Part shown: one piece after another, positions 1,455-28,000 of the stretch | How the letters are laid out: each line of letters starts with the position of its first letter | Numbering within the stretch: the first letter of the stretch is position 1 | Source of the DNA: a virus | Reading direction: 5' to 3' (one strand) | Length of the DNA: 64,000 nt | Virus record (IMG/VR): IMGVR_UViG_3300025073_000027 | Span: 1-64,000 of that record | Made by a program: the position numbers and the translations under genes | Notes under the pieces: model-generated | Told to the model about the DNA's origin: nothing | What the model saw: only the letters and a program-made list of their open reading frames with translations | The model's database searches: none

Positions 1455-1488
1455 AATAAAATAACCCTAATAAAAGGGTTATTTTATT
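1455..1488. terminator. Bidirectional hairpin terminator
   Basis: aataaaataaccc-taataaaa-gggttattttatt, 13-bp perfect stem; also contains a copy of the 18-bp junction palindrome. Confidence 0.6.
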
Positions 1489-1521
1489 AGATCTATAAAG
1501 TTGCTCTGTTATACAAAAAAA

Positions 1522-1800
1522 TTAAAATATATAAAACATTTCATTCAAAATATAAATAACTATCGTATATACTGGTACTAATACTATTCCCGCTATCAAT
1601 GACGCAAAACCCCATTTAATAATAAAAACTATCATTGAATCAAAATTCATCCAGATATCATTTACCACTATTGGAGTAGGTTTTAGATGTTCCTCTTTTT
1701 GTTGTTTCAATAATTCACGTATTTCTAATAATAATTCAACCTGTTCTTCAATTAATGTTACCGGGCTTTTTTGAGATGGTGATTGAAATTGATTAGCCAT
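1522..1800 (-). CDS. Small membrane protein
   Basis: Coiled N-terminus, long hydrophobic C-terminal segment; RBS AAGGAG. Confidence 0.7.
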   Translation of the reverse strand: MANQFQSPSQKSPVTLIEEQVELLLEIRELLKQQKEEHLKPTPIVVNDIWMNFDSMIVFIIKWGFASLIAGIVLVPVYTIVIYILNEMFYIF

Positions 1801-1844
1801 AACAATTCTCCTTTCATCAATTATACGATTTATAATATTACATT

Positions 1845-1873
1845 AGTATATAAAAAGAATGCAATATTGTCAA
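1845..1873 (-). promoter_or_regulatory. sigma70-type promoter
   Basis: TTGACA-17-TATACT on the minus strand upstream of 1800. Confidence 0.65.
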
Positions 1874-1921
1874 CCCATTAATTATTAAGAAGTTGTTATG
1901 GCTAATAAAAACTGAATTTTA

Positions 1922-2887
1922 TTATTTATTTTGACTACAAACATTATTATAATCAACCAAGCAATCAAGACAATTATTCTTACAAATTACATCTTCGTGT
2001 GTATTATGATTTAATGACCAGCGATAACGTTCTTCTCGCATTTTACTAGAAACTTTTCCTATTGGTTCACCACCTTCTCGCATATGAATTACACAAGGAA
2101 AATGCCAATTTCCAGCCACCACAGAATCATCTTGAACAAGATAACATCGATTAGTGTCACCATTATTAATACCACGAACATTTCTACCAGAAATCAAATT
2201 ATTTACCCTATATTTTAAAACGGGATGAGCACTTAAAATATCTTCTGATAAATGTTCTAATTTAGATAATAATCCATTATATTGTGCTGCGGTAATAATT
2301 CGTATATCGCTTACACCTAAATCATGAGCAAATTTAATAACATCTACAACTGTAGACTCAGTTTCTTTTGTTAACACTATACCGACTGTTACGTATGTTT
2401 CTTTAGATAACCATTCAATATTATTGATTACTGTTTGAAAATATCCCTTACGACCAGCCATTTTATCAGCATTTTCAGCGCAACAAGCATCTAAACTAAT
2501 TGAGAAATCATTTACACCCGCATCCAATAAAGATTCATATTTTTCTTTAGGAAGAGATCCGTTACTAGAAATTGCAATTCGATTTATGCCTCCTTTTTTT
2601 GCCATTTGAACCAAGTCTAAAATTCTAGGATAAAGAGTTGGTTCACCTCCTGAAAAACGAATATTTTTTAATTTATCTTCTATCCAATTAGATATAACAA
2701 ATGAAGCATTTGCAAAATCAATATGTCCATTACAATCTTTACTATAGGCTTCAACACCTCTGCAATAAGGACATCTAAAATTACAAAAAGATGTAACTAT
2801 CATTTCGCATCTTTCTAAATGTAAATGGGTTTCTCTAGCTCTTTTATCAGTTAATGTATAAAACCCTATATTATTCAAAGAATACAT
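1922..2887 (-). CDS. Radical SAM protein (MoaA-like fold, Cys-rich C-terminus)
   Basis: CNFRCPYC motif, FSGGEP, ISSNG, SISLD; start probably ATG 2887 or TTG 2878 rather than 2932. Confidence 0.9.
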   Translation of the reverse strand: MYSLNNIGFYTLTDKRARETHLHLERCEMIVTSFCNFRCPYCRGVEAYSKDCNGHIDFANASFVISNWIEDKLKNIRFSGGEPTLYPRILDLVQMAKKGGINRIAISSNGSLPKEKYESLLDAGVNDFSISLDACCAENADKMAGRKGYFQTVINNIEWLSKETYVTVGIVLTKETESTVVDVIKFAHDLGVSDIRIITAAQYNGLLSKLEHLSEDILSAHPVLKYRVNNLISGRNVRGINNGDTNRCYLVQDDSVVAGNWHFPCVIHMREGGEPIGKVSSKMREERYRWSLNHNTHEDVICKNNCLDCLVDYNNVCSQNK

Positions 2888-3161
2888 AATAAAATTCCTT
2901 TTCTCTAAAATGTGTCCAGCAATATTCATCATTAATTATAAACATAACCGCAAATTCCTTATCTTTTGGACGACACATAAGTTTTTCGGCTTCTATATAA
3001 CCAATTGCATATTTTATTAATATGTTAGATTTTTCTATTATGTCATAATATTTACAAACAACACCTATTTCAGTCCATATGTCAATACCATATAACCATC
3101 TCAACCAATCAAAAGAGTCTATGGGTAATTTTGGTATTATACAAACTTTATTATAAAACAT
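2871..3161 (-). CDS. Hypothetical phage protein
   Basis: 96-aa ORF in the co-oriented array. Confidence 0.6.
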   Translation of the reverse strand: MFYNKVCIIPKLPIDSFDWLRWLYGIDIWTEIGVVCKYYDIIEKSNILIKYAIGYIEAEKLMCRPKDKEFAVMFIINDEYCWTHFREKEFYYVFFE

Positions 3162-3166
3162 AGATT

Positions 3167-3391
3167 TTATACAAACAAATACCCAACAATTCGAATTTTC
3201 TGACTATGGATAAAATGAAGATCATCATCATAAAGATTATTATAATAATCAATGGCCTCATGTAATCTTTCTGATGTGACATCCAATTTTTTAGATCCAT
3301 TAGCAAGTTCAATAGCCACAACTACATACGATAATGTTTTAGTATTAATCGCACGTTCAAACGCATTTAAAAACTCTTCTTTTTTATTCAT
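3167..3391 (-). CDS. Hypothetical phage protein, paralog of 5306-5545
   Basis: Shares KEE...TLSY.V.A...DD.L....K..IV.YL.V with 5306-5545. Confidence 0.75.
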   Translation of the reverse strand: MNKKEEFLNAFERAINTKTLSYVVVAIELANGSKKLDVTSERLHEAIDYYNNLYDDDLHFIHSQKIRIVGYLFV

Positions 3392-3670: not shown

Positions 3671-3691
3671 TATTATTTCCTTATAAAACAA

Positions 3692-3913
3692 CTATTTTAT
3701 AATAATATTATATTTTTCTATTTTTTGTTCTACGTTTTTTCTTGCTTCTTCTAATGTCTCGCCATAACCATAAATCGTAATTTCAATGTCATTAATAATT
3801 AATTCTTTTTCAGCAATTATTATATAACTAGAATTAGTTGCTATACAATTTTCTATTGTTATAACATTATTGCAGCTTTTATGTATATAAAATTCAAAAT
3901 CTGATTTATTCAT
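3692..3913 (-). CDS. Hypothetical protein
   Basis: ORF with RBS GAGGA, bounded by junction palindromes. Confidence 0.65.
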   Translation of the reverse strand: MNKSDFEFYIHKSCNNVITIENCIATNSSYIIIAEKELIINDIEITIYGYGETLEEARKNVEQKIEKYNIIIK

Positions 3914-4583
3914 TATTGTTTTTCCTCATAAAATATCCACTTTATTCATCTAATGAAAATAGAAGCAGTATCATAATCTAGCATTTCACCATCTAACTTC
4001 AATTCCACTTTAATATATTGAATACCGTCATCTATATCACTGTAAATATAAATTCTAAGATTTTTATCTATATATTCTTTTATTAATTTTCTAATAGTAT
4101 CATCTAATTCTTTATCCATAATGTTTCCTCATAAAATATCTATTTCATTCATCATCTTTTTGTTTAACACTAATAAGAGCAGGTATTAAAAATGCCCATA
4201 AACAATAAGTGTTATGTGTTAAATAAATACCTACCGATATAGCAAACGCTGTTACTATCCAAGCTGTTCCATATGCAATATAAGCCCATTTATAATAATC
4301 CATACAATCTCCTTATAAAAAGTATATTTTATTCCTGATACCCAAACTGTATATGCTGCATAGCCCAATCGTGTACTATGCTCTGTTTTTCAATTGCACT
4401 CAATGAATACCATTCATCTTCATCTAAAACATATTCTGTTACGTCAATTTCTTCTTCTACTGATTCGGAATTCAAATCTACCCAAAATCTAACTCTCATT
4501 TTATGCTCCTAATGTTAAAGAATTCAGAACGATTTAATTTTTTAACAAACCTATACGAATAATAATACTATCAAACAAAAGTT

Positions 4584-4880
4584 TTATTCTGTTATTTCTT
4601 TCGCTGTTAAATCCCATCGATCTAAATCAGGAGATTCAATAATCCTCGCATTACTATCTGGTTGATCTGCCCAACCATCCAAATGAGAAAGACTCCACCC
4701 ATTGATAATCAAATTATATGCAATATGTTCGGCAATATCTTCTGGTGTGTACAAATCATATAATGCAGATCTCCACTCATCATCTACAACATCAATTACT
4801 GCATCATCTAACTCGATTATAGCAGTGTCAACATATTCTCCATACATTTCAAAATCGACTTCAAATTTTCTTTTAGACAT
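4584..4880 (-). CDS. Acidic hypothetical protein
   Basis: RBS AAGGAG; stop lies within a junction palindrome. Confidence 0.7.
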   Translation of the reverse strand: MSKRKFEVDFEMYGEYVDTAIIELDDAVIDVVDDEWRSALYDLYTPEDIAEHIAYNLIINGWSLSHLDGWADQPDSNARIIESPDLDRWDLTAKEITE

Positions 4881-5096
4881 TTTTATCTCCTTATTTATTA
4901 TAAATCTAAGATTCTATGGTTTATCTACAATATAATCATAAATAAAATACTCATACGCATTTTCAAAATTATCGTTTGCGTAATCTTCTGCCAATTTTTT
5001 AGATGAAAAGACTCCCTTTACGATTGTGCCACAAGAATAATCATCAAATATTAGTATATACACTTTCATTATATAATCCCTTATGAAACGGAAATT

Positions 5097-5285
5097 TTAT
5101 TGATTATAAACAGTTGTTGTAATAAGTTCTACCCTATAATAAAGTAAGCGTTCGCCATCTTTCAATTCTTTTCTCTTTAAGTATTCACTGTATGCTTCAT
5201 CATAATTATCAAATTCCATGCTAAAACTCCCATATCCATAACACACAATTTCATATCTTGTTTTTTCGCTCATGTTATGCCTCAT
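5097..5285 (-). CDS. Hypothetical protein
   Basis: Short ORF bounded by palindromes; likely start at MSEK. Confidence 0.6.
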   Translation of the reverse strand: MRHNMSEKTRYEIVCYGYGSFSMEFDNYDEAYSEYLKRKELKDGERLLYYRVELITTTVYNQ

Positions 5286-5305
5286 AAAATAGAATCTTTA
5301 TCCTG

Positions 5306-5545: not shown

Positions 5546-5597
5546 ATATATTAATAATTATTGTTTATTATATTATAAAACCTGCAATTTATATTGG

Positions 5598-6612: not shown

Positions 6613-6657
6613 TTTCGTAAATTGTCACTAAATCAAAAATAGTGACAAGATACGAAA
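6613..6657 (-). terminator. Hairpin/terminator
   Basis: tttcgta..ttgtcacta / tagtgacaa..tacgaaa inverted repeat after stop 6674. Confidence 0.5.
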
Positions 6658-6673
6658 TAAAATGCCTCTTCTA

Positions 6674-6937
6674 TCACTCAAAATAACCGACTGATAACAC
6701 CCATACCTTACCTAGAGGTTGATTGTCGTCAATTGAAACCAACTCCCATAAATTTAATCCATTGATATCTTCGCCATACATTTTTAAAATATCAAGAAGT
6801 TCTTCAAGGGTATTAATTTCTAAAGATCCATATGTTGAACTAGGATGTTCCTCTAAGTATGCAACTTGCTTAAGGGTATCCTTATTTTTATCTTCAAATC
6901 TTGTATAAAATTTCATATTATTCTCCTTATCAAACAC
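6674..6937 (-). CDS. Hypothetical protein
   Basis: ORF between palindromes; true start probably MKFY. Confidence 0.65.
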   Translation of the reverse strand: MFDKENNMKFYTRFEDKNKDTLKQVAYLEEHPSSTYGSLEINTLEELLDILKMYGEDINGLNLWELVSIDDNQPLGKVWVLSVGYFE

Positions 6938-6942
6938 TCATT

Positions 6943-7281
6943 TTATTCCATGCCTGGAAAATTAGTTTCTACATTATTCTTACCAAACATATCTTCAATT
7001 TCTCCGAGTTCTTCTGAAAGTGTCAATGCAGACTTATTCGGATATTGCATTCTAATTCTTTCAGCAATGCTATAAACAACTCCCGCACCTTCTGTGTGTT
7101 CTAGGGCATATCTTTCGGCCCACATACATAGAATTCTAAGTTCATGCCAATTTATAGTTATATCTACCTGATTGTCATATGTACAAGGAACACTTGTGGT
7201 TTTACAGTTTGGACAACATTCCATATCATCAGTAAATTCTTCTATATCTAATCCGCACATTGTACAAAATCCTTCTGTCAT
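6943..7281 (-). CDS. Zinc-ribbon-containing hypothetical protein
   Basis: CTMC...CPNC; RBS GGGAG. Confidence 0.75.
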   Translation of the reverse strand: MTEGFCTMCGLDIEEFTDDMECCPNCKTTSVPCTYDNQVDITINWHELRILCMWAERYALEHTEGAGVVYSIAERIRMQYPNKSALTLSEELGEIEDMFGKNNVETNFPGME

Positions 7282-7570: not shown

Positions 7571-7781
7571 AATTATTTATGCCATCTTTTATTAATTTCT
7601 TGAAGAATTCTTAATAAATTATTTTGATGATTTTCTCTACTTCCATCTTGTGCAAAGAATTTCAATTCTAATTCTCGATAGTACAATTTCCAAAGATGAT
7701 CTAAACTAGAATTTTTTAATACATTATCTGTTATGTCTGCGCTTGACATTATAAACTCCTCATCATAAAATCAGACTTCTA

Positions 7782-8027
7782 TTATATTGGATTTCCGTAA
7801 AACTTATTATTTTTAATTTGTTCTTCGGTTAGCCCCAAGTCTCTTAACAATTTTTCGGTTTCTAAATAATCTAAATACGATGGTAACTTGGAATCCGAAC
7901 CTCTGCAAACAATATTTTCTCTATTGATATTTAAATATTCTACCACTTTGTTTAATTTGTAATATGGACATTGAGCAGAATAAAGTTTATTATTTATTTT
8001 TATCGTATAGAAATATATCTTAGGCAT
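7782..8027 (-). CDS. Hypothetical protein
   Basis: RBS AAGGA; palindromes on both sides. Confidence 0.65.
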   Translation of the reverse strand: MPKIYFYTIKINNKLYSAQCPYYKLNKVVEYLNINRENIVCRGSDSKLPSYLDYLETEKLLRDLGLTEEQIKNNKFYGNPI

Positions 8028-8333: not shown

Positions 8334-8337
8334 TATC

Positions 8338-8559: not shown

Positions 8560-8601
8560 AGTTCTCTATCTTTATCCTTTATGTAGTATGAAATTGAGCT
8601 T

Positions 8602-8862
8602 TTATTTTCTATTCTTAATTTTTTCAATTATTTTACTTGGTACAACATTATCTCTTATATCTGTTTCTACCCCGCACTCAGGGCATTTGAATGTTATATA
8701 GGTTTCATTGCTTCCATCATAATGACTAGAATAGGTAAAATATAGATTATCTTCTTCAACCAATAATTTTGCTCCACATCCTCCATTCCCATTACCTTTT
8801 CCCGTACACTTTTCTTTTATGCTCCAACCCTTTTGTCCAGATCCAGATTGCAAGATTTTCAT
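8602..8862 (-). CDS. Zinc-ribbon protein
   Basis: CTGKGNGNGGCG...CPECG; RBS GAGG. Confidence 0.75.
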   Translation of the reverse strand: MKILQSGSGQKGWSIKEKCTGKGNGNGGCGAKLLVEEDNLYFTYSSHYDGSNETYITFKCPECGVETDIRDNVVPSKIIEKIKNRK

Positions 8863-8887
8863 TGTGACCTCTTATAAAATCGAACTT

Positions 8888-9145
8888 CTATTGTAAACCT
8901 TCTTTACTTCTAAGAAATAGACGTAATGCCTCCGAAAACGCAATATTCCACCTCTCATTATAGCCCTTTACTTTTTCTGACTGTTTATGTAATTTATCGC
9001 TTATTTTATTATTGCCTGTTTGTTCAAATGCCTTAGCTAAGTCATCTAATTCTCTAGATATATAATGCAAACTATCATATAAATTGATGCTCTCATTAAT
9101 TAATTTATATTCTGGTTCTTCTTCTAATTTTTTTATGCTTTTCAT
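8888..9145 (-). CDS. Helical hypothetical protein
   Basis: ORF between palindromes. Confidence 0.65.
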   Translation of the reverse strand: MKSIKKLEEEPEYKLINESINLYDSLHYISRELDDLAKAFEQTGNNKISDKLHKQSEKVKGYNERWNIAFSEALRLFLRSKEGLQ

Positions 9146-9173
9146 TTATATATTCCCTTATCAAATCTTACTT

Positions 9174-9404
9174 TTATTCATTGCCTTCCCATTTTGACCA
9201 ATCACAAGTTACACCATCAAATTCCCAAACACCGCTTCCCATACCTCTGCCAATTCTCATACAAGGCATTCCTTCAATATAAAAAGTTTGGTAAACAATA
9301 CCATCATTATTCTCTTTGCTAGGCAATACATTCACACCACCCGAAACAGAACAACTAGAAAGAAAAACTAAAACAAGCAATAATAAAACAGTGAACTTTT
9401 TCAT
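9174..9404 (-). CDS. Putative lipoprotein
   Basis: MKK + hydrophobic stretch + LSSC lipobox. Confidence 0.7.
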   Translation of the reverse strand: MKKFTVLLLLVLVFLSSCSVSGGVNVLPSKENNDGIVYQTFYIEGMPCMRIGRGMGSGVWEFDGVTCDWSKWEGNE

Positions 9405-9606
9405 TTTTTATCTCCTTTTTTTATTATATTAATTCTTCTTTATTATTATTTTCATTTTCTAAATTTTGTATCATAGCCAAAGCATCATCAAAATGCTCAT
9501 ATTCCATAAATTCTTGATATTTTTGCAATTCACCAAATATTTCCCATGCTAATTCCAATAAATTTTTGATTGTTGTTTTATCTTTATCCATTATAAAACT
9601 CTGTTT

Positions 9607-10056
9607 TTATCTGTTATTCAATTCTTCATCAAAACGTTTCCAGCACTTATCTTTTTGTTGAAAATAACTGCATTTAGAAAAAGCACCCCATTCACACTCA
9701 TCCCAATCAGGAGTTATATCATAATTTGCATTCTGATACCACCAATGAGGACATACATACTCTCTCATTTCCATACCAATTTCAAATTTCTTTCCATTCC
9801 ACCACTCTTCGTATGTCATACCACCAAAATTTAGATCTCCTCCAAGAATAATGCCAGGATTACATTCTACTACCCTTCGAACACTATTCACTTTAATCTT
9901 TTCGGTAAATTCTTCAAATTCATGAACAAAATGATATTTTCCTGTGCCTTTACAGGTATAACAAACGTTTCCATAACCATCATGTTCTGCCATACCAACA
10001 TAAATACCCCTTCCCTTGCAACTAGGACATTGCTCATCAATTTCAATTTTTTTCAT
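9607..10056 (-). CDS. Protein with DnaJ-type CxxCxGxG zinc finger
   Basis: CPSCKGRG and CYTCKGTG. Confidence 0.75.
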   Translation of the reverse strand: MKKIEIDEQCPSCKGRGIYVGMAEHDGYGNVCYTCKGTGKYHFVHEFEEFTEKIKVNSVRRVVECNPGIILGGDLNFGGMTYEEWWNGKKFEIGMEMREYVCPHWWYQNANYDITPDWDECEWGAFSKCSYFQQKDKCWKRFDEELNNR

Positions 10057-10095
10057 TATTTATTTTCCTTTATTTATTATAAAACCCTATTTTTA

Positions 10096-10296
10096 TTACA
10101 ATAATCCGGCCTCATCAGTATACATTTCAGCACCGCATTCACAAGTATATAAATTAATCCATCGAGCAAAATATCCATCTGTGAAGAATGGTTTCAATCC
10201 ACGCTTCTTGTATTCCTTTTTAGATTTAACTTCAACCCAACGATGCTTTCCTAATAAACCATGTCCTTTTCCATTTTCAAGAATACATTGTTTCAT
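10096..10296 (-). CDS. Small Cys/His protein
   Basis: RBS AGGAG; C..H..CEC. Confidence 0.6.
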   Translation of the reverse strand: MKQCILENGKGHGLLGKHRWVEVKSKKEYKKRGLKPFFTDGYFARWINLYTCECGAEMYTDEAGLL

Positions 10297-10324
10297 TTTT
10301 TATTCTCCTAATAAATATTTGATT

Positions 10325-10507
10325 CTATTGGTTATATACGGCACAAATTTTATATATGTAATCCCATCCACTCATCCGATCTTCAATTTTTGCAGAAAAT
10401 ATACTTTCTTGTGCGCCTTCTTTAGTATCGAAAATTTGCTGCTCAAGAATACAATCAAATGTATTATCGTCTCTTAAGGCAACTACTATATATTTTTCGT
10501 TTTCCAT
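10325..10507 (-). CDS. Hypothetical protein
   Basis: ORF between palindromes. Confidence 0.6.
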   Translation of the reverse strand: MENEKYIVVALRDDNTFDCILEQQIFDTKEGAQESIFSAKIEDRMSGWDYIYKICAVYNQ

Positions 10508-10542
10508 AATTTAATCCTTATAAAACCACCTTTTTATCTGGT

Positions 10543-10573
10543 GATAGTGGGGAGTTTTGACCTCCCCACTATC
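10543..10573 (-). terminator. GC-rich hairpin after the 10587-13037 gene pair
   Basis: gatagtggggag-ttttgac-ctccccactatc, 12-bp perfect stem. Confidence 0.7.
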
Positions 10574-10586
10574 CAAACACCTAATA

Positions 10587-10991: not shown

Positions 10992-13037
10992 TTAAAATTT
11001 TATCTTAATTATTCTTTCTGATTGACCTGTTATCTTTGCCACTACTTCATTTCTTTTTGTTGATGAAAATCCTAAACCAGATAATTGATCATCGGTATCT
11101 TTTACTGCCATTTTTCCACCAAGAGCTTCAAATACTCTCTTGTGTTGCATCAAGTCCTCTTTGAGAAATTCATTGTAAAACCCGTTTGGATTTTCAGGAT
11201 TGACGCAATTTTTCAACATAAAAAAGTAGTGCCGATGTCCAATTCCATCTTGTTCATCCCAATAATTAGGGGAATACATAACAACTGACACTGGAATAAA
11301 TTGATTTATTTTTAAACTCCATACCTCCTTAGATGAAACACTTGATGGTAATTTTTCTGAAATAGAAAATCCCATTTCTCTATTGAATACAACTTCCGCT
11401 ACTTGCACATTTTCATTCTGTCTAACTTCTTTGTTATAGTCAAAAGAATATATTTGTCCATCAAATTCTATTTCTGATTTAAATCCGCTTCTACCTCCAC
11501 GATTAGAAAAGCCATGAACAAAAAATTTATATGTTCCTTCTCTCATATGTCCCTTATTGGCCCATGTTATATTTTCAACAGCAGGAACATTTTTTAATGG
11601 ATGAATTATATCTACATCAAGATTACCACCCGTATTAATGTTGACTTTTCTCGCATAATAAATCTCATTACCTCCTGGTTCAATGCAATGAGCATCTAAA
11701 TCATTTTGATCGTGATCTAATCCATCATTCCATTGTATTGAAAAGCGTAAAACTCCCTCAACATTACCACCAGCAGATTTAACTCTTTCTTTAATGGCAC
11801 TATCAGTAATATTTCCAGAATAAGCCCAACTAAAACCGTTATTCCATTTGAACATCGTACAAGCGTCTTTATTTACAGGTGCAATGAGCGACATAAAATT
11901 GCCAGAATGTTTGTTTTCAAGAAGAATTTGCAATTCCTTAGTAATAGGTAAAACACTAGTAACAAAATCATCAACTGTTATCTCTTCTATCTTTGAAAAC
12001 TTTTTAGGACTGGTAGAAATATCAGTAAGCATTTCATCAAAAACACTTGTTCCACAGATTCGTTTAGCGGAATCCTTATTTGAAAACAAAATATTGTTCA
12101 CGGTAATATCATCGAGTGTTGCATAACGCCTATTCAAAGATTCTAAATAACCAAGTTCTTCTATGGTTTTCTTTGCATCCTCAAGCATTTTTTGAGTAAA
12201 AATTGCTTTTGGTCTTTTATAATTCGTAGGAGCAACAATTTTTTCATATTTTCTAACGGCAATATCTAAATCTTCACCTTCACTAATATCAACAAGTAAA
12301 GTGCCAATAGAATGATTCCGAATTCTGCCAATTGCACCGCCAACTTTGACAGACTTTTCCCAAGTGTAATTTTCTCTTTCTTCTACGGATTGTAATTTTG
12401 TATATTCCTTCTTTAACTTTAAGAAATCTGTAAGTACCGATTTCCATTCCTCACCCTTGTATAAGGAGTTTTGAGAAATCAATTCCAAGACTGTTAACAA
12501 ACTTTCTTCAGAGATTTCTTCTAATGATCTTTTAAAAACATTTCTTGTATCTCTATACGTTCCCTTCACATCCCCGATTGATTTACCGGAGTTATTTACA
12601 AACCTATCAGGTAACTTTATATAAAAATGCTGCCATTCAACAACATTATCTTCGGATTTTTCAAAGTTCTTATCCGTTCCAATTGAACTAAATTTAGTAA
12701 CAAACACATCAGATACGATTTTAGACTTTACATACTGAGACAATGCATTAATTACAGGTTGAAATGTGGAATCTTCTATTTCAAAATCCCAAATAGTTTT
12801 TATTCTATTGTTATTTATAACCACAACATTTCCAATGTTTTTAATAAAATGCTTACAGCAGCTACAATCGAATTCTCTTCTTTGACGATAGATATTATTT
12901 GTTCCTTCTGGAAAACTATCAAGGTATAAATTCCAAAGCACATCCTTATCTAAATCAACTTCAAATAAAACATTTTCTCCTTCTGTTATAGTCTTGAAAT
13001 TTTGTTGAAATACTTTTTTGAAATCCTTGAACTCCAT
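10992..13037 (-). CDS. Large conserved phage protein with YfaP/DUF2135-like domain
   Basis: FDCSCCKHFI at the N-terminus; LRFSIQWN...NDLDAHCIEP...LDVD...AVENITW. Confidence 0.85.
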   Translation of the reverse strand: MEFKDFKKVFQQNFKTITEGENVLFEVDLDKDVLWNLYLDSFPEGTNNIYRQRREFDCSCCKHFIKNIGNVVVINNNRIKTIWDFEIEDSTFQPVINALSQYVKSKIVSDVFVTKFSSIGTDKNFEKSEDNVVEWQHFYIKLPDRFVNNSGKSIGDVKGTYRDTRNVFKRSLEEISEESLLTVLELISQNSLYKGEEWKSVLTDFLKLKKEYTKLQSVEERENYTWEKSVKVGGAIGRIRNHSIGTLLVDISEGEDLDIAVRKYEKIVAPTNYKRPKAIFTQKMLEDAKKTIEELGYLESLNRRYATLDDITVNNILFSNKDSAKRICGTSVFDEMLTDISTSPKKFSKIEEITVDDFVTSVLPITKELQILLENKHSGNFMSLIAPVNKDACTMFKWNNGFSWAYSGNITDSAIKERVKSAGGNVEGVLRFSIQWNDGLDHDQNDLDAHCIEPGGNEIYYARKVNINTGGNLDVDIIHPLKNVPAVENITWANKGHMREGTYKFFVHGFSNRGGRSGFKSEIEFDGQIYSFDYNKEVRQNENVQVAEVVFNREMGFSISEKLPSSVSSKEVWSLKINQFIPVSVVMYSPNYWDEQDGIGHRHYFFMLKNCVNPENPNGFYNEFLKEDLMQHKRVFEALGGKMAVKDTDDQLSGLGFSSTKRNEVVAKITGQSERIIKIKF

Positions 13038-15812: not shown

Positions 15813-16838
15813 TTACTTTTTTGCCCAATCCAAAATAACATTAGCTGCATTTGCCATAGTATTAGCACGATTACCGAACAATATTGAATAATTGGATGGT
15901 TTTTTTGTTACCCTACCATGATTTTCATATTCTGTTATCGAATTAAACACACCCCAACCATCAGGAGTAATTTGAATACCATTACCACTAAATAAACTTT
16001 CAACTGCAACTCGATCACGTTCTGCTTTTTCTTTTAGAATATCAATTTTTTCTTGCTTTTCTGCTCGTAATCTAGAAGGAAAATCTACAGGAATAGGTTT
16101 AGGATCTGGATAAATTTTAAATAAAAGATCTGCAAGAGATTTTTGATTTTCAACGGCCTTCTTTGCCATAAAATTAAACATAGCAGAAGCAGTATTTACT
16201 TGATTTAATGCCTTTTCCTGAACATGTTCCATCCAAATGCCTAAATCACGCTCTAAATTGTTACTGTTATGTCTACCACTCCAAATTTTGCCTTTACCTG
16301 CTTCATTACCGGTTTCTCTTTCGCCTTCGTTTACTGCCATAGTAAAAGTGTTATTGCAAACTACCCTTACAGAAACAACATAAAGAGTAGCACCAAATTT
16401 ACCATCATAGCCCACCGCAACAAAACCATAAAGATTCACTAAATCGCCATTTACATCAAATGAAGGTAGTACCCATGTGAGAAATAGTTTTTCTCCATTG
16501 CCTAATAGCCCCAAAGTTTCTACTGGTTCTTTTACCCATTGATCAAATTGTTCACAAATTTCAAGTGGTTGAAGAATATTATAATTCTTTTTTACAAATC
16601 CAAGTAATTTTTCATTAGGATTCGAGGGAATAGCAGAACGAATAATTGCATAATCTCCTGTTACCTCTTGCAATTCTCCATTCAAAAATACACTTACTGG
16701 ACGTTTCTCATAAAACACACCCTCAAGAATAGAAAATGCCTCAACCGCACCACGAGAGGTTTCAGAAACAAAACCCAAATTATGCCAAGCGGGAGTATTA
16801 TTTAAATATACATTGTTTCCCATAATATTGTGTGCCAT
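15813..16838 (-). CDS. DUF932 family (TIGR03299-like) phage/plasmid protein
   Basis: MAHN...PAWHNLG...Y.ILQP...ETLGLLGNG...DG...RVVCNNT...RH...WGVFNSITEY. Confidence 0.9.
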   Translation of the reverse strand: MAHNIMGNNVYLNNTPAWHNLGFVSETSRGAVEAFSILEGVFYEKRPVSVFLNGELQEVTGDYAIIRSAIPSNPNEKLLGFVKKNYNILQPLEICEQFDQWVKEPVETLGLLGNGEKLFLTWVLPSFDVNGDLVNLYGFVAVGYDGKFGATLYVVSVRVVCNNTFTMAVNEGERETGNEAGKGKIWSGRHNSNNLERDLGIWMEHVQEKALNQVNTASAMFNFMAKKAVENQKSLADLLFKIYPDPKPIPVDFPSRLRAEKQEKIDILKEKAERDRVAVESLFSGNGIQITPDGWGVFNSITEYENHGRVTKKPSNYSILFGNRANTMANAANVILDWAKK

Positions 16839-16902: not shown

Positions 16903-16938
16903 GAGGGAATTTTATAATTTTATAAAATTCATATTTTA

Positions 16939-17352
16939 TTAACTATGACACAAATACTCTAATGCTTTTTCGTAACGATGTATTAAATTATTATAACGAT
17001 TAAAATAAACAAATTTAGCACTATGAAGATTTTCTTCCAAATCAGCAATCTTAACTTTAGTTGCAACTTTATATCTTGCTACTCGTCTAATATAAGTATC
17101 TAAGTATAATTCACCATTTCGCCTTGTGAGAAAATCAACTGCTGTTGCTATTTCATCACCAAAATTTAATTCTATATCATTTAAAGTAATATTTGTATCT
17201 TCTACAACATCGTGCAATAAGGCAACAGTCTTAATTATTGGATCTTCAAAATGCCTTGCTACCATAAGAGGATGAACAATATAGGGCAAATCACCATATT
17301 TTTGATCACCGTGAGCATTTATAACAAATCGAATTGTTTCTTCAATATCCAT
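16939..17352 (-). CDS. HD-domain small alarmone hydrolase-like protein (RelA/SpoT hydrolase, Mesh1-like)
   Basis: AHGDQ..PYIVHP, ALLHDVVEDT, LTR, VKIADLEEN. Confidence 0.85.
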   Translation of the reverse strand: MDIEETIRFVINAHGDQKYGDLPYIVHPLMVARHFEDPIIKTVALLHDVVEDTNITLNDIELNFGDEIATAVDFLTRRNGELYLDTYIRRVARYKVATKVKIADLEENLHSAKFVYFNRYNNLIHRYEKALEYLCHS

Positions 17353-17667: not shown

Positions 17668-17708
17668 TTTATTTATTCTCCTGTTATATGAAATAAAGAT
17701 TTTATGAG

Positions 17709-18262: not shown

Positions 18263-18301
18263 AATAAAATCTATTTTTTATAATAAAATGCAAATTTCAT
18301 T

Positions 18302-18730: not shown

Positions 18731-18779
18731 AATTTTTAATCCTTATTTGTTATATACAATAAAAGAATGTTTTTATTTG

Positions 18780-19019: not shown

Positions 19020-19081
19020 TTTATAATTATCTCCTATTATTATAATTTACTGTTATATAAATTTATTATATCATAAAAATA

Positions 19082-19270
19082 TTATTTTATTTCAAATCCA
19101 TATTCATTATATTTTTTATCAACATCTTTATAACAAGTTTTCCATCTATCAATATGAGTATTACCGATAAAAAAACTATCATAATTTTTATTATAAATTC
19201 CCCAACATGCCCCCAACCAATATTTTTTACTATCTTCTAAAATAATTTGACCGGTTTTATTTTTATTCAT
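19082..19270 (-). CDS. Hypothetical protein
   Basis: RBS AGGAG. Confidence 0.6.
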   Translation of the reverse strand: MNKNKTGQIILEDSKKYWLGACWGIYNKNYDSFFIGNTHIDRWKTCYKDVDKKYNEYGFEIK

Positions 19271-19906: not shown

Positions 19907-19938
19907 TCATAAAAAATAATAATTATAAAATTGTTATT

Positions 19939-21759
19939 TTATTTTACATATGAATTATATACCGGATATTTTTCCACAAATTGAATTGTGGCATTAAATA
20001 AGTTAGGAGAAATAGAAAAACCATATGCATCATATGTTATAAGTTCCCTATCTTTAAATATATTGTAACATTCCTTACAATCATTTAGATCAGAATAACC
20101 TTCTAAAATTAAATTTACCTCATACTGTATACAAAAATTCTTTATTTTATTTTTATCAGTTATCTTTATATCATTATTCAATAAAAATGATATATCATTC
20201 ATTCTATTTACTACGCGCCGTAAAAATGGAGTAATTGACATTATATAATCTCCTGTTATCCTAATAAAAGTAATATTTTATCCTTTTAAATCATACATAT
20301 AATCAATATGATTATCATACCACGCGCCGCCGGTAATTTGAAAATGGATTAATCCTAATTCTAATAAAGCTTGTATAGCCTCATTTTCAGTATTAAATGA
20401 TTTTACTCTTGTTATAGGTAAATTTAAACTGTTTTTATCAGTATATGTTAATTCAATGGGTACACTTCCAACAATAGTATATTTATTGTTAGGAGTTTTT
20501 ATAATTGCAGTAGAAAATTTTCTATTGCCAAAAAATGATGATACGCTCATTTTATACTCCTTTAATGACAATAATATTTTGAAGTTTTAAATCCGTAAAC
20601 TTGATTAATATATTCTGGTAAAATCCATTCTGTTATAACGTCTTTTACTGATTTATTATAAGGATTATAATATATTCCTACCATTTCAGGAATTCCAAAT
20701 TTTGAATGTTCTTTTTTAGTCCATATTTCAACCCAAAATTTATTATTGTTTTTTAACATTATATAATCTCCTATTATGTTATCAATTATTCATTTATCAT
20801 ACAAGCTAAACATTGACTCTTAATTTTACAATCAATACAACCTTTTTCTAGACTGTTATAATAATTTTCTGAATCATCCAACCAATGATTATTTACCGAT
20901 AAAATGCCACTTGCTAACAATGAGGATAAGCACAATATAGACTCAATGTCATTTGATTTATGAATGATAGGATATCCGATATTTACGGTTTTTTTACTGT
21001 TTAACATGGGATATACTCCTGTTATGATCTAATTACCATTTATTTATATCAGATAAATTGTTATATAATCTCTCGCATATTGCCTCATATTTTAACGCCT
21101 CTTGAATATCACCGGATTCCCTTAGATCCATAGCAATTTTTTTATTTATAGCATATGCCTTAATAATCTTTATATCTGGTATGCTTATATTATACTTTTT
21201 AGCAGATAACCTAACATGGTTATCAATTTCACCAAATAAGGATAATAAATCATCTTTACTCATACAGTCTAGATTTAACATGATTTATTCTCCTATGATC
21301 TAATTTGATTTATTAGTTAAATCCATTATATCAATGTGACAAGCTATACCCTCTGTTGTTTGTGATTCAAAAATGGGAATCCCCTTATCATCATATAAAA
21401 CAATCGTTTTATAACCATTGTTTTCAATTACATTAAATGCATGTAATTTTAATTTTTTTGTTTTTTCCCATTCATTAATAAGTTTTGCCGGATTTTCTTC
21501 ATCTGTAAAATTAAAACCATTTTGTGTAAATTTCATTTCTGCTATTCCTTATAATAAAACTGGTATTTTATTGTTCTATTTTTTCCCCAAATCCAAAAAT
21601 AAATAAATTTGGAGAAATTCCAATCATAAAATAATACTGAAAAATATCCCAATCAAATTTATCAGATGATAAATGAGCAAAAATTATACCAATAATAATA
21701 AAAATTATAAACCAAATAAAAGTAGCTTTATTTGTTATCTTAAACGTATGCGTTTTCAT
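19939..21759 (-). CDS. Run of seven short hypothetical genes (19939-20241, 20278-20571, 20562-20759, 20786-21007, 21033-21281, 21300-21536, 21568-21759)
   Basis: Co-oriented ORFs, most with AGGAG/AGGA RBS; the last is a 2-TM protein. Confidence 0.6.
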
Positions 21760-21853
21760 TATATATATTCCTTGCCTCTTTTGTTCTGAATGTTTTTATA
21801 ATCCACATGTTATTTACTCCTATTATACAATGAAAATATAATTTTATTGCCTG

Positions 21854-22584: not shown

Positions 22585-23102
22585 TTATCTTACAATGATT
22601 CTAGTTAATCCCTTATAATTTTCATTATACCACATTACATAAAATAGCGCGCCTATTTTATCGATAAATTTGGCAACAATTGTTATTTCTTCTTTTTCAT
22701 CATTGGTACAAAAATATCCTACTTCATACCATTTACCAGTATGATATTTAGTTAAATCTGTTATATTTATCATTATACTTTATTCCTTATTTTTGTTATG
22801 ATAAAAATACGATTTTATTATATCCAAATTGTTTTTATAGGATTGACATTTTTAGCCAAATTTATTTGATCATTTGCAAGCTTTTTTTCTTCTTCATTCC
22901 ATTTTGTATAATGTAAAAATTTATTGTTTTTATACATTGTGGCAAGTATATCTTCTTCAATTGTGTGTACCAATACATAGTAATTATCATTATTTATTAT
23001 TAGATTATTTTTGGTTATAATCATTTGATTTTTACTCCATAATTCTGTTATAGTCAAATAAAAAATACATTTTATCCGGTTTTTATTCTTCAGTAATAAC
23101 AA
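22585..23102 (-). CDS. Two short hypothetical genes (22585-22773, 22818-about 23024)
   Basis: Co-oriented ORFs separated by the palindrome at 22801. Confidence 0.55.
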
Positions 23103-23569: not shown

Positions 23570-23639
23570 CCATTCTAAGCGATTTTTATATTATTATGAT
23601 ATATGGATACCATTTTATAATTTAAATCGCTTAGAATGG
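23570..23639. repeat. 16-bp perfect inverted repeat with 38-bp spacer
   Basis: ccattctaagcgattt (23570-85) / aaatcgcttagaatgg (23624-39). Confidence 0.85.
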
Positions 23640-23663
23640 TTATTATTGCCATATAAGAGTATT

Positions 23664-24002
23664 TTAAACCTCATTTACGCGAATAGGTGACAATGAAGAA
23701 TGAGAGGTACAATGCATTTCTCCTATTGGATATGAATCCGATTCACGGTTTATATAAATATTAATATCATCTCCCAATAAATCAAGTTTACATGATATCC
23801 CAAAAGCTTTTTTAATCTGATAATATGTAGGATAAGCGGATTTAAATTGCATAGAGGTATCAGGATTATTAACCTCAATTTTAAGGTTAATGGGATAATT
23901 TCTATTAAAGCAAAATTGATCATTAACACTGAATCCTTCTTCAGAATTACCCCAAACATCACAACTCCATAATTCCCATGTAGTTTTTACGGTTTTTTTC
24001 AT
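23664..24002 (-). CDS. Hypothetical phage protein
   Basis: DVWGNSEEGFSVND motif; RBS AAGGAG. Confidence 0.75.
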   Translation of the reverse strand: MKKTVKTTWELWSCDVWGNSEEGFSVNDQFCFNRNYPINLKIEVNNPDTSMQFKSAYPTYYQIKKAFGISCKLDLLGDDINIYINRESDSYPIGEMHCTSHSSLSPIRVNEV

Positions 24003-24241
24003 TTGATTTTTACTCCTTTTATTGCCTGTTATCTGGTAAGATGAAATTATTTTATTGATTTTTATTTTCTAATTCTTTAATACGGTTTTCCAATTCTTCA
24101 AATTTAAGCATTGTAAGGATTGTTATAAACGTCAACCATCCAAAAATTATAATAAACGTTTCAATATTCATGTTATACATTCCTCATTGTTAGATCTAAT
24201 GAAATTATTGTTTTATCTGGTAGAATATATTTAATTATAAT

Positions 24242-27180
24242 TTATTTAATATTTGGATTCTCTGAATCATATTCTCGCCACTCATTAATTAAATCTGTTA
24301 TAACTGGATTATTGGATAAATCACCCTCAATAAGCCAATCATAAATTTCTTGAATTTTGTTAGAATAAAAATATTTATCATCTAAATGTCCAAAGCACGC
24401 ATTGTAAATTTTTTCTGAAATAGATTGAATAGTATTGACGTTCATTTTATCTCCTTTTAAAGCTTGTTAATAAAATAATGGTTTTATCAGTCTAAATCAA
24501 TATGAAAATCGGCAATAAATAAACCATGAAAACCGATTCCCCATTTATAAAACCATAATGCAAAAGGCCATAAACCGGATTTATTTATTGAATATTTGTG
24601 CAAGCATAATCTAATTTGAAAATTTTTATTAAATATCCGATAAAATTTTTTTCTTACAATGATTTTATCCATGATTTAATCTCCTGTTATAGTCTACCAG
24701 ATAAATAAATGATTTTATCCGGTTTTATCGTTTATTTTTCTTCTTTTAAACTATCATTTAAAACCTTTTTACAATCCGCGCATATTCTGTTATCATTTAA
24801 AATTTGATCATTTGTTACATTATATAATGTAGAATAATGCATGAATGTATCATCTTCATTAATAACGGATTCTCTATTGATTTTACAGAATGGTTGACCG
24901 GCATAAAATCCTGAAAAGGTTAAATGTATCATGGTTTTATTATATCCTTTTTTTGTTGAATCTATGTTAGATGTTATTAGGATTAAAATTTATTGTCATT
25001 ATTTTTAAATACAGTTACACAATACATTAAACCTATTAGGGGTAAACTCATTATAATAAAAGGCATTGAGGCTTGTATGATTGATTCTAGCATGGTTTTT
25101 TTACTCCTGTTATCTATTATTTATTATTTGTTATAGTTTATTGTGTTATTCTGGTAAGATCCATTATATTATGAATTGTTTATTTTATGATAGTTTACTT
25201 CTTACAATTTCTATATGGTTAGAATGGATGTTATCATTTTTTAGATCCTCTAGTAAGGATTTTTTAAGTTTACTGAAGAATTCATTTAAGGATTTAATGA
25301 TTTTTACCGGATTCCCTTTGGTTTTTCTGAATGATAATTTTTTACTGTTATATACCAGATAGGGAGAATTAGGTTTAATATGATAGGTTTTATGGTTATT
25401 CTCTAATGATATAACAGATAGTTCAGATTCTAGATTGATATTTTTTGTAAACTCTTTAAAATTTTCTTCACTAATTAAAAATCCTACTTGTAAAATATCA
25501 TTGTCTAAATAATTATTTATGCATTCGCTCCTATTTTCTGCTAAATAGCAATTAATAGAAATAGAAGGATATAAATTTTTTGACAGTCTAACAATGATTT
25601 TACTTTTTGGAAAATGATCATAGTATGATTTTTCAATTTCTGTTATTAGTTGATTAGTTTTCATGATTTTTTATCCTTATTATAAAATCCTGATTTTATT
25701 TGTGATTAGTTATTTCTGTTAGGTATTTTATGGCCTTTTTAATTGTCATTTTATAAACTTGATTCAAATGTAAAATAGAATAACCACGCGTTCTATAAAT
25801 ATTATCTATGCAATATTCTATTTTACAACGGTTATTTATAAGAGTATACTTCCAATTTTCATTATCAGTATGATTTTTCATTGTATAAACTCCTGTTATC
25901 CTGATTATATCCTGTTATAGTCTTAATTAGTTAAAATAATTCAACACGATAATGATCTAAGTTTAGCATAAAATCATCATATGAATCGCATATAGAACGA
26001 TTTAAAATACTTGCACCAAATAACCAAATATTACCGTCATCACATAAGGCATAAATTTTGTCAGTATAGGGAAGCTTGCCTATCTTCTTAATTATGGATA
26101 ATACCGGTTTATTGTTGGTTGGTTGGATTTTTGATCGATTCATGTGATTTTATTCCTTATTATTTATTGCATCTGGTAGAATGATTCTTGTTGTCATTTA
26201 AAGGTATTATAATTCCTAATTGGATAATTTACCGGATGATAAGAGGGGTAAGAAGAGTATAAGAGGGGTAAATTATCCTATAGGATTATAATGGTTTATT
26301 GGTTTTTTTCATAGTGGATAATTGCCTTACATTCGCGCCCTCTTAAATCCAGATCCATATTAATGATTTTACAATTTATCGTTTGAATCTCATTTGCTAA
26401 ACGAGTACAAAAATCACCAAATGATTCACGTTCTTCTGTTTTTTGGGCGATAACATATTCCTTAACCATGGTTTTCTCCTTATTTATTGGATCTAATGAA
26501 ATTAGATTTTTATTAGGGTTTAAAGAATATTGCCCTTATGGTCAATTTGCACAATCGATATTAACTCATTTGTATACCGATTACAATAGCTATAAATAAC
26601 ATTGCCAGTTAATTGGTTAAAATTGGTTGACATTGTAACAGGTATTGAAAAATTTTTAAAAATATTTTGAGATATTTTATCCTGTTTTTTTGAGGTGGTT
26701 TTATACATTCCATTAGGGTATTTGTTAGACATTTGATTTTTACTCCTTATTTGTTGGATCGATCCTGATGAAATAATCGTTTTATTGTTGATTATTATCT
26801 TCTGTTTTTTCTTCTTCAGTAGGGTTATCAGTATAATTACCTATACCGGTATAAAATTTATAATCATCTTGGCATAAATCATAATGAGGATTAAAATCCT
26901 TATAGGGGATTGGATCTCGATTATATAAAGCTTTAAATGAGGGTGATTTTTTCATGGTTTTTTTTATGTCCTGTTTTTACTTGAAAATATAAATTCCTGT
27001 AGTTTTCAAATATAGCGTAGTGCTATTTTTATTATAGCGAATTCCGGTAATTTCTACCAGTTTATTTTTAGTCCTGAAGAGGTTTTTTATTTCTTCAATA
27101 AGCTTATCATCATTATCAGGATATAAACCTGAATTATACTTTTTACCGTCTAGAAAAAAATTGTATTTTTTTGTTTTCAT
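24242..27180 (-). CDS. Run of short early hypothetical genes (24242-24445, 24487-24672, 24732-24932, 25185-25664, 25696-25881, 25931-26143, 26520-26732, 26977-27180, plus unlisted ORFs under 60 aa)
   Basis: Co-oriented ORFs with RBS, many bounded by the junction palindrome. Confidence 0.6.
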
Positions 27181-28000
27181 AATTTTTTTGTCCTGTCTGA
27201 TAAAATTTGTTTTTTATTATCTTATTGAGTAGGATTATCTCTCGATAATCCTATCGGATAAAACAATAAAATTTTTATTATTAATATTGTTTGGCCTTCA
27301 AAGTAATATTTTTTATATCAGATAATAATTTATTTAATGCCCTATCAGAAATATAATCGTAATTTGAATTAATGCGGATAATTTCAATTTTGAAATTTTT
27401 AATTTCATCATTGATTTTTTTTAGTGTATCATTTTTTGGGGTATTTTTTGTTTTCGGCATTTCATAATCTCCTTATTTTTTATATATCCTATTCAATTAA
27501 TAACATTGTACCATAGAATATATGCAATTGTGCCAACCAATTTATAACGAGTTTGTAAATATTTATTGCATTTATTGTAAGTTTATTATAGGTGATTATT
27601 ACAATACTTGTATAAATGATGATAGCATATTTACAAATATTGTAAAAAAAACCCAACAGGAACGATTCTAAGCAATTTAAAATAGTAAAAGGTAGTAAAC
27701 TACCTATAATTTAAAAAACCTCAAAATGGTATCTAATAACGATTGTACCAAATAGCACTATTTTTCACAATTAAATACTTATTGAAATTGTAAGTTTATA
27801 AGTAAAATTATTTTGCATTTATTGATTTTTTGTAAGTTTATAAGCTTATAACAGGGTATAAATGTTAATAAATTGTAAAAATTACAAAATTGATAGGGTT
27901 TTTAGGGTTTTATCTGGTAGAATTGAATTAATTGTAAGATCGATCTATTAAGATAAACGATAAGAAGATAAGATGATAAACGATAAGGAGTAAATAAATT

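Follow-up and report, generated by a model that had tools for sequence, protein, structure and literature searches.

What does a short palindrome accomplish when it recurs, with the same arms and a different centre each time, at one gene junction after another of a phage genome? The question is raised by the window, by which is meant the whole stretch of 64,000 nucleotides analysed here, corresponding to the first 64 kb of the 137,722-bp virus record IMGVR_UViG_3300025073_000027 (the genome of this phage is labelled G000). Between positions 1470 and 27217, an array of small open reading frames (ORFs) on the minus strand is punctuated by the dyad ATAAAA-N6-TTTTAT, in which two inverted 6-bp arms enclose a free 6-bp centre. 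A first reading of these letters, hereafter the original prediction, had proposed a cassette-like array for gene capture and shuffling, with operators of a recombinase-fold repressor or RNA-processing hairpins as alternatives. The results presented below indicate a genuine motif of one phage lineage, restricted to the early arms, which is very likely a DNA site bound by a protein. Window coordinates are used unless "genome" is stated, and the ORF calls were crude.

A Palindrome at the Junctions of the Early Arms

The exact dyad was found 26 times in the window, whereas 100 dinucleotide-preserving shuffles averaged 0.32 copies and never exceeded 2, and the scan against a shuffled background that had been suggested for this motif thus spoke for a genuine element. 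Twenty-three of these copies lay in 1470-27217 and three in the late arm (40596, 47976 and 60675). When up to one mismatch was allowed, 53 sites were counted across the window, 47 of them within 1470-27217 (23 exact and 24 with one mismatch); the earlier figures of 21 exact and about 25 near-exact copies were therefore slightly off for the exact class and sound for the overall number of about 45. In the whole genome, 53 exact copies were observed and none of the backwards control. A scan of spacings from N0 to N14 over the genome returned the same 53 exact copies at N6 and 0-4 at each other spacing, and leaving arm base 3 free gave 74 sites at N6 versus 3-11 elsewhere. With up to one mismatch, 90 sites were found at N6 versus 11-41 at other spacings, which implies that some one-mismatch dyads are chance matches, mostly those inside ORFs.

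The position of the dyad was equally specific. Genes at 1-31 kb and 83.5-137.7 kb of the genome lie on the minus strand and those in between on the plus strand, and 49 of the 53 exact sites fell outside the called ORFs, although these cover 91.7% of the genome. A motif as common inside genes as between them would have spoken against the junction claim of the original prediction; this was not the case, and junction counts bore the claim out. In the minus-strand arms, the dyad was present in 25 of the 44 junctions with a gap of 20-45 nt, and the one-mismatch form alone in 7 more, whereas none of the 16 junctions with a gap of 20-70 nt in the plus arm, which carries the late structural genes, contained it; six exact copies were found in the late arm across the genome. 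The dyad is therefore nearly restricted to junctions of the early, minus-strand arms.

At these junctions, the upstream stop codon began at motif position +1, so that the first arm supplied TAA, TGA or TAG, in 29 of the 90 sites with at most one mismatch, and at position -2 in 13 of the 90. Seventeen gene ends had been listed earlier as carrying their stop codon in the first arm; 16 of them were confirmed at position +1 of such sites, and the remaining one (10325) belonged to a two-mismatch site. The claim that the next ribosome-binding site (RBS) follows the second arm also held, since the dyad was found just upstream of the RBS, with the start codon mostly 28-46 nt from the first motif base. 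A separate TTGACA-type box followed some dyads by 0-32 nt.

Further details of the array were observed. The TTGACA/TTGACT box lay 32 nt after the dyad at 1905, 19 nt after that at 16922, 18 nt after that at 19925 and 0 nt after that at 23058, and these boxes are probably host-type early promoters. One dyad (13561) comes after a transfer RNA (tRNA) instead of a stop codon: a tRNA-Leu gene with anticodon TAA occupies 13587-13669 (minus strand), and 8 nt on stands the one-mismatch dyad, followed by the next RBS. Tandem dyads, 19 bp start-to-start with a single base between them, were found at two places (18264-18300, and genome 124128-124164 with starts at 124128 and 124147). A G+C-rich hairpin lacking a clear U-run was located at 10538-10575, immediately upstream of the dyad at 10520. 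The features of the window are listed below; no strand is assigned to the dyads.

1470-27217, minus strand: array of about 80 small co-oriented early/accessory ORFs punctuated by dyads (ORF list, 47 sites with at most one mismatch, junction statistics)
1470-1487: exact dyad (pattern search)
1905-1922: exact dyad; upstream stop at -2; TTGACA promoter-like box after it
3153-3170: exact dyad; upstream stop within first arm
3683-3700: exact dyad
3928-3945: one-mismatch dyad, junction
4131-4148: one-mismatch dyad; ATGAAA arm contains TGA stop
4315-4332: exact dyad; stop in arm
4570-4587: one-mismatch dyad; stop in arm
5083-5100: one-mismatch dyad; stop in arm
5284-5301: one-mismatch dyad, junction
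5575-5592: one-mismatch dyad, junction
6657-6674: one-mismatch dyad (ATAGAA)
6929-6946: one-mismatch dyad; stop in arm
7765-7782: one-mismatch dyad (ATAGAA)
8588-8605: one-mismatch dyad; stop in arm
8874-8891: one-mismatch dyad; ATAGAA contains TAG stop
9160-9177: one-mismatch dyad; stop in arm
9593-9610: exact dyad; stop in arm
10079-10096: exact dyad
10311-10328: two-mismatch dyad, ATAGAA-N6-ATTTAT on the coding strand, at gene end 10325 of the original prediction
10520-10537: exact dyad, G+C-rich hairpin before it
13062-13079: one-mismatch dyad; stop in arm
13561-13578: one-mismatch dyad, right after tRNA-Leu and before the next RBS
14570-14587: exact dyad; stop at -2
14795-14812: one-mismatch dyad; stop in arm
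15015-15032: one-mismatch dyad; stop in arm
15264-15281: exact dyad; stop in arm
16922-16939: exact dyad; stop at -2; TTGACA box 19 nt downstream
17688-17705: one-mismatch dyad, junction
18264-18281: exact dyad, tandem with 18283 (19 bp start-to-start)
18283-18300: one-mismatch dyad, tandem partner of 18264
18759-18776: exact dyad
19073-19090: exact dyad
19925-19942: exact dyad; stop in arm; TTGACA box 18 nt downstream
20264-20281: exact dyad; stop in arm
21395-21412: exact dyad, exceptional in lying within a called 78-amino-acid ORF
21554-21571: exact dyad; stop in arm
21830-21847: one-mismatch dyad, junction
22801-22818: exact dyad; stop at -2
23058-23075: exact dyad; TTGACT box abutting
24199-24216: one-mismatch dyad, junction
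24470-24487: exact dyad; stop at -2
24701-24718: one-mismatch dyad, junction
25682-25699: exact dyad; stop in arm
26496-26513: one-mismatch dyad, junction
26768-26785: one-mismatch dyad; stop in arm
27200-27217: exact dyad
40596-40613: exact dyad, long gap of the late arm
47976-47993: exact dyad, long gap of the late arm
60675-60692: exact dyad, long gap of the late arm

A Probable Double-Stranded Site Rather than a Hairpin

The variation among sites revealed in which form the dyad is recognised. Mirror-image variants were equally common, with ATGAAA in the first arm of 7 sites and TTTCAT in the second arm of 9, of which the first alone retains pairing in the mRNA, and the TTTGAT variant (4 sites) loses pairing on both strands. 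Single variants at arm position 3 disrupted sense-RNA pairing in 13 of 20 cases, centre positions 6/11 formed 9 pairs versus 15.9 expected, and the stem was extended neither outward nor inward. In the SPbeta clade, the flanks are also conserved (n=76), with T at -5 in 49/76 and C or T at -4 in 59/76 on the left, and G or A at +21 in 66/76 and A at +22 in 58/76 on the right. Among 64 distinct sites of this clade, no outer pair contained more Watson-Crick combinations than shuffled partners did (all P >= 0.16); for example, C at -4 stood opposite A 15 times and opposite G 13 times. Half-sites that vary independently, with no covariation, point to a double-stranded DNA site for a symmetric protein dimer and not to a hairpin, so that the RNA-processing alternative of the original prediction is disfavoured.

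The SPbeta-clade site can be written as a 28-bp palindrome, TYTRR-WTAAAA-N6-TTTTAW-YYARA (11-6-11). The dif site is described, in the available text of PMC5357621, as a central region of 6-8 bp between a pair of inverted arms, each about 11 bp long, and SPbeta-clade dyads were found to share this arm geometry, being mirror-symmetric to 11 bp.

Distribution among Relatives

The dyad belongs to a phage lineage and not to A+T-rich DNA or to the host. Exact copies numbered 32 in G001 (121.9 kb, with an RNA polymerase 64% identical to that of this phage), 15 in BUCT082 and 13 in SPbeta, with 0-1 for the control pattern, and the loose form TAAAA-N6-TTTTA occurred about 34 times in SPbeta versus 0-3 times at other spacings. 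In a Bacillus rugosus genome of 4.5 Mb, 20 of the 31 dyads lay in its SPbeta-like prophage of about 130 kb and 11 elsewhere, which corresponds to a density about 60-fold above that of the remainder of the host genome. A Fictibacillus genome with a YonO prophage harboured just 2 dyads, and 33 unrelated phage loci of 6-22 kb each, some of them equally A+T-rich, harboured 0-2 per locus. Across 72 YonO loci in bacterial genomes, which are mostly late regions, 17 dyads were counted in 1.36 Mb versus 13 summed over six control spacings. A 15-base version of the motif, scanned against viral contigs, gave single and apparently chance hits among the matches listed.

Scans of viral and metagenome contigs for closer relatives of the array, made with a 681-amino-acid protein and a DUF932 protein of the window, reached at best 76% and 74% protein identity, respectively, the gene of the former proving to be carried by unrelated phages, and the best relative, G001, shares 3 of the about 80 left-arm genes. 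No earlier description of the dyad was found in the literature searched, the reach of which ended before the 1999 SPbeta genome paper and all supplements.

In SPbeta, one exact dyad (111028-111045) falls inside yorM as annotated. An SPBRE-type promoter lies 116 bp ahead of this dyad and a good RBS directly behind it, and the true start of yorM may lie further downstream than annotated.

Probable Gene-Swap Joints in the SPbeta Clade

As the window array lacks a close relative, the early regions of SPbeta, phi3T, Goe11, Goe14 and SPR were compared instead. At many dyads of this clade, the left flanks were unrelated and the right flanks homologous, with the alignment starting between -11 and +3 nt of the first dyad base. 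Taking all pairs of genomes, 34 of 113 clusters of homology starts coincided with a dyad of at most one mismatch, versus 9 of 111 clusters of homology ends, which indicates that the dyad travels mostly with the downstream gene. Junctions with a dyad contained a breakpoint in 35 of 47 cases, versus 53 of 123 for other junctions (odds ratio 3.9; five related genomes pooled). Taken as an association, the dyad is probably a preferred, although not the sole, joint of gene exchange in the SPbeta clade.

The place of the joint was narrowed with nine events that were anchored on an identical centre and right arm; as identity was imposed there, only the left arm and the next 18 nt were comparable. Differences occurred at 7 of 54 left-arm positions and, over the next 18 nt, at 3 of 162 (P = 0.0028), and the eight bases further left mismatched at 45 of 72 positions, i.e., they were unrelated. 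The excess of mismatches in the left arm indicates that ancestry switches inside it or at its inner edge, and in six of the nine events the switch could be placed within or at the left arm, which is compatible with strand exchange at that point. Of the 31 rows obtained with a loosened search, many were misaligned through small indels or contained no dyad, so that its pooled mismatch rates are unusable. It was also observed that unrelated upstream ORFs share a TCTAA or TCTGA end just before the dyad and that, in three aligned events, one junction was imprecise (AATAAA versus ATAAAA).

Candidate Recombinases and Proposed Mechanism

The original prediction was correct in stating that no recombinase is encoded in the window. 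The search for tyrosine recombinases elsewhere in the genome, which it had advised, was rewarded: outside the window, the genome encodes one large serine recombinase and two tyrosine recombinases, the latter scoring 125.7 and 80.8 bits against PF00589.

Genome 125510-126409: XerA/C/D-like tyrosine recombinase (Xer299), 299 amino acids; PF00589 at 125.7 bits, SAM-like N-terminal domain
Genome 68904-69953: YomM-like tyrosine recombinase, 349 amino acids; ortholog of SPbeta YomM (27% identity), same late-region position

Aligned with XerA, the 299-amino-acid protein presented the Arg, Lys, His-x-x-Arg, His and Tyr motifs. G001 encodes an ortholog that is 38% identical to it, and a sigma-A-like box pair, read by eye, precedes both genes. 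Its match to IntI4 was restricted to residues 216-283. The 349-amino-acid protein presented the Arg, His-x-x-Arg, Trp and Tyr motifs in the same alignment. One of the six exact late-arm dyads (69950) overlaps the stop codon of the YomM-like gene, a dyad adjoins the YomM ortholog of the Bacillus rugosus prophage, and yomM of SPbeta has its nearest dyad at a distance of about 400 bp. When the ORFs of this phage were compared with those of SPbeta by phmmer, 14 matches were obtained, and the YomM type was the only DNA-binding family common to both. Pfam scans of conserved early proteins for a shared regulator yielded glycosyltransferases, a vWA domain and HNH endonucleases.

The centres of the dyads were also informative. 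Among the 74 sites, no pair of identical centres was found in either orientation, versus 3.07 expected (P = 0.042), and G001 likewise had none versus 0.99 expected. Three centres were common to this phage and G001 and two to this phage and SPbeta, which is taken to be about chance level, and the ones inspected were non-syntenic.

On these comparisons, a protein encoded by the phage would dock as a symmetric dimer on double-stranded DNA, with the dyad as the core of its site. The dyad would also open each early or accessory gene unit at its 5′ side, followed by RBS, ORF and stop codon, and would be the joint preferred for the exchange of these units. A phage Xer-like tyrosine recombinase may bind both arms, the candidates being the 299-amino-acid or the 349-amino-acid YomM-like protein here and YomM or YopP in SPbeta. 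Strands would be exchanged where the left arm meets the 6-bp centre, whereby the centre, the right arm and the downstream gene would stay joined while the upstream gene changes, and the unique centres would prevent recombination between sites of one genome. That the dyad is a docking site and gene-exchange joint acted on by such a recombinase, binding without catalysis included, is proposed tentatively, as a reading of sequence comparisons; we infer the identity of the binder, the cutting at the dyad and the extension of the SPbeta-clade pattern to the window. Its most specific version, an order-keeping exchange system of dozens of Xer-type sites with the same arms and unique 6-bp "address" centres, cut by YomM, YopP or Xer299, is decidedly doubtful.

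Several observations weigh against the recombinase proposal. The genomes pooled for the cluster and breakpoint counts are not independent of one another, and with SPbeta alone as reference there was no enrichment (6/11 dyad junctions versus 15/30 others). Over half of the mosaic boundaries fell at junctions devoid of a dyad, and among 56 replaced-segment events the dyad stood at the right boundary in 16 and at the left in 7. The gene-capture and shuffling array of the original prediction is therefore upheld insofar as mosaic boundaries of the SPbeta clade are enriched at dyads, and is not upheld as a general rule, since most boundaries lie elsewhere and those examined belong to the SPbeta clade. 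In the late/RNA polymerase region, comparison of G001 with G002 and G003 revealed no boundary at a dyad, save one insertion beside a dyad-like site. Both crossovers of the laboratory hybrid Hyb2phi3Ts-SPbeta fell in parent-identical stretches (1.4 kb and 4.9 kb), in which they cannot be placed and for which plain homologous recombination suffices. Thirteen sequencing runs contain the stretch; in the four compared, all of them contigs of the same strain whose long pieces were identical to the window, no circles, deletions or recombination were seen, most joints having uninformative sides of about 20-31 nt. Of the orthologous genes of this phage and G001, 15 had an upstream dyad in one genome and 0/15 had it in both. 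The YomM-like gene is absent from G001 (92% complete) despite its 32 dyads. Different centres normally block exchange by tyrosine recombinases such as Cre and Flp, and a 6-bp spacer between short arms also suits regulators of the CRP type. Finally, the recombinase-site geometry claimed for the array was present in part: inverted arms around a free 6-bp centre were found, reaching 11-6-11 in SPbeta relatives, but in this phage the symmetric extension is clear to only about 9 bp per arm (9-6-9), and the right side overlaps the RBS.

Alternative Explanations

It is possible, though somewhat doubtful, that the dyad is instead an operator or roadblock, on which a phage regulator would silence or shut off early and accessory genes singly, and swap boundaries would then be a by-product of the dyad being the first element of the expression unit. 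As regulator, a helix-turn-helix dimer, the HU-like protein beside YonO or a recombinase-fold repressor like MrpR might serve, and the arrangement would resemble the "stoperators" of cluster A mycobacteriophages. A symmetric double-stranded site devoid of covariation would be expected of an operator, and so would the restriction to the early arms (25/44 junctions versus 0/16 in the late arm), the position just upstream of the RBS, the movement mostly with the downstream gene, the tandem copies 19 bp apart (18264/18283 and genome 124128/124147) and the SPbeta copy between the SPBRE promoter and the yorM RBS. However, the dyads are not conserved at orthologs (the 0/15 given above), phmmer and Pfam scans found no candidate regulator common to all dyad-bearing phages, and an operator predicts neither the left-arm ancestry switch nor the absence of identical centres.

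The SPbeta group offers a precedent for such control. According to the available text of PMC10516654, the master repressor MrpR, which has a recombinase fold, binds SPBRE, an element repeated at ten promoter regions; SPBRE is thus like the dyad in being a repeated intergenic element of the SPbeta group, and is bound by a protein of the tyrosine-recombinase fold. In the same text, the ten ChAP-seq (chromatin affinity precipitation sequencing) peaks of MrpR are all SPBRE promoters, of a sequence unlike the dyad. The ten named MrpR promoter regions were found to share AATATGTATA in a promoter-like context, and not the dyad; the exact dyads nearest to SPBRE regions were 95 bp to 19 kb off, and SPbeta contains about 10-14 SPBRE copies versus about 34 loose dyads. 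The dyad as the SPBRE/MrpR operator was rejected on the basis of AATATGTATA, a different sequence, in a comparison that left the published logo aside. The operator alternative of the original prediction therefore survives as a rival, but not in the form of an MrpR operator.

It is unlikely that the dyad is a passive linker, i.e., a conserved expression signal at which genes would be exchanged by general phage short-homology recombination, as proposed for the PeSLs (promoter-early stem-loops) of T4-type phages, with no dedicated enzyme. As far as the available text of PMC2839356 and PMC4122927 goes, PeSLs are conserved junction cassettes with modular shuffling. The imprecise junction (AATAAA versus ATAAAA), the TCTAA/TCTGA ends common to unrelated upstream ORFs, the Sak4-like annealing protein of the SPbeta annotation and the Hyb2 crossovers, which require no special site, would also suit a passive linker. 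Nevertheless, about 11 conserved bases to the left of a variable centre are very short for homologous exchange, the dyad has neither the sigma-A promoter nor the stable stem of a PeSL, and the primary function of the site would be left unexplained.

An RNA role is very improbable, in which an AUAAAA-N6-UUUUAU hairpin would influence how the polycistronic early mRNA is processed, how stable it is or how its translation is coupled: the dyad is transcribed, lies between stop codon and RBS and is annotated as a stem_loop at two SPbeta sites, but six A-U pairs with a 6-nt loop would probably be unstable, and the pairing results given above (no outer-pair covariation, 13 of 20 position-3 variants losing sense-RNA pairing, and the deficit at centre positions 6/11) run counter to it. 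Equally remote is a transcription signal, whether a promoter for a YonO-like or modified host polymerase or a terminator, for although the unit-boundary position and the host-type TTGACA promoters after some copies would fit, the dyad was accepted neither as a sigma-A or YonO promoter nor as a terminator, given that the dyad-RBS distance is too small for a transcription start downstream of a -10 box, that the distance to the TTGACA box varies from 0 to 32 nt, and that arms of A-T only form no G+C-rich stem and are followed by no U-run.

Comparison with Known Systems

Among published concepts, the PeSL of T4-type phages comes nearest to the dyad, and in geometry the dif site does. In the available text of PMC2839356 and PMC4122927, a PeSL consists of a strong sigma-70-like promoter and a terminator stem-loop, and its exchange is ascribed to homologous recombination. 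Both elements are short conserved repeats at junctions of small non-essential early genes, and both coincide with boundaries of insertion, deletion or replacement between relatives; for the dyad, such boundaries of gene gain, loss or replacement were found in the SPbeta clade only. In contrast to a PeSL, the dyad is an 18-28-bp protein-type site with a free centre, and neither a promoter nor a terminator was recognised in it, as fixed promoter hexamers and stem extension were absent and the arms consist of A-T only.

Xer/dif sites, among them those of the single-recombinase systems XerA, XerH and XerS, resemble the dyad in having a 6-bp central region between inverted arms of about 11 bp, and the arms of XerH and XerS sites carry runs of A or T, like the inner arms of the dyad, as far as described in the available text of PMC5357621. 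The phage also encodes a XerA/C/D-like recombinase. Whereas a replicon usually has a single dif site, located either beside its recombinase gene or far from it, 50-74 dyads were found per genome, each with a different centre. A possible parallel is offered by the pdif modules of Acinetobacter plasmids and by engineered heterospecific lox/FRT cassette exchange, in which many recombinase-type sites with differing spacers surround genes; pdif arms are asymmetric, one side being that of XerC and the other that of XerD, and their orientation alternates, and the lox/FRT system is man-made.

Integron attC sites are imperfect palindromes of 57-141 bp, recognised as folded single strands, in which structure is conserved over sequence and which are kept with the upstream ORF. 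The dyads share with them the cassette-like junctions and the stop codon that often lies inside the site, but measure 18-28 bp, their arms are specific in sequence, their pairs do not covary, and dyad and centre stay mostly with the downstream block (34 versus 9 clusters). The integron analogy of the original prediction thus breaks down both in structure and in polarity. No RAYT/Y1 transposase (PF01797) was found in the genome, which makes a REP-like (repetitive extragenic palindrome) selfish repeat unlikely.

The Phage and Other Genes of the Window

A 926-amino-acid protein encoded at 32450-35230 (plus strand) matched PF05183 and is a YonO-like single-chain RNA polymerase. Its best relatives in cultured phages were found in BUCT082 (Bacillus, 35% identity), Clostridium phage c-st, Enterocloster phages and SPbeta (YonO, 26%). 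Two genes downstream of it lies a gene of the HU family (PF00216; 36044-36409, plus strand), and this YonO/HU neighbourhood also occurs in SPbeta (yonO, yonN) and BUCT082. The polymerase, together with the recombinases, indicates a distant and probably temperate relative of SPbeta. The stretch was found in groundwater and soil metagenomes. A perfect direct repeat of 126 bp at the ends of the record (window 1-126, identical to genome 137592-137717) suggests a complete genome, through either an assembly closing on itself or terminal redundancy.

Within the array, the 681-amino-acid ORF (10992-13037, minus strand) had no Pfam match, and its relatives with 47-76% identity were found in 33 viral contigs, most of them large phages devoid of the dyad; in the compared runs, contigs of other organisms pile up on this gene, which looks like a promiscuous gene. 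The following products were recognised by family match.

175-981, minus strand: Cas_VVA1548-like domain protein
1922-2932, minus strand: radical SAM protein
15813-16838, minus strand: DUF932 protein, among the few genes shared with G001
29339-30097, minus strand: HNH endonuclease

Implications

Since the dyad is present in the genetically tractable SPbeta (13 exact and about 34 loose copies), its role is directly testable. If it is an operator, SPbeta would possess a second genome-wide layer of control beside MrpR/SPBRE. If it is the target of a recombinase, a function would be found for the orphan tyrosine recombinases of SPbeta, and large temperate phages would have a new route by which to trade defence, counter-defence and metabolic accessory genes. 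Were the order-keeping version true, co-infecting phages and resident prophages would swap single genes with their order unscrambled, in a natural counterpart of heterospecific lox exchange.

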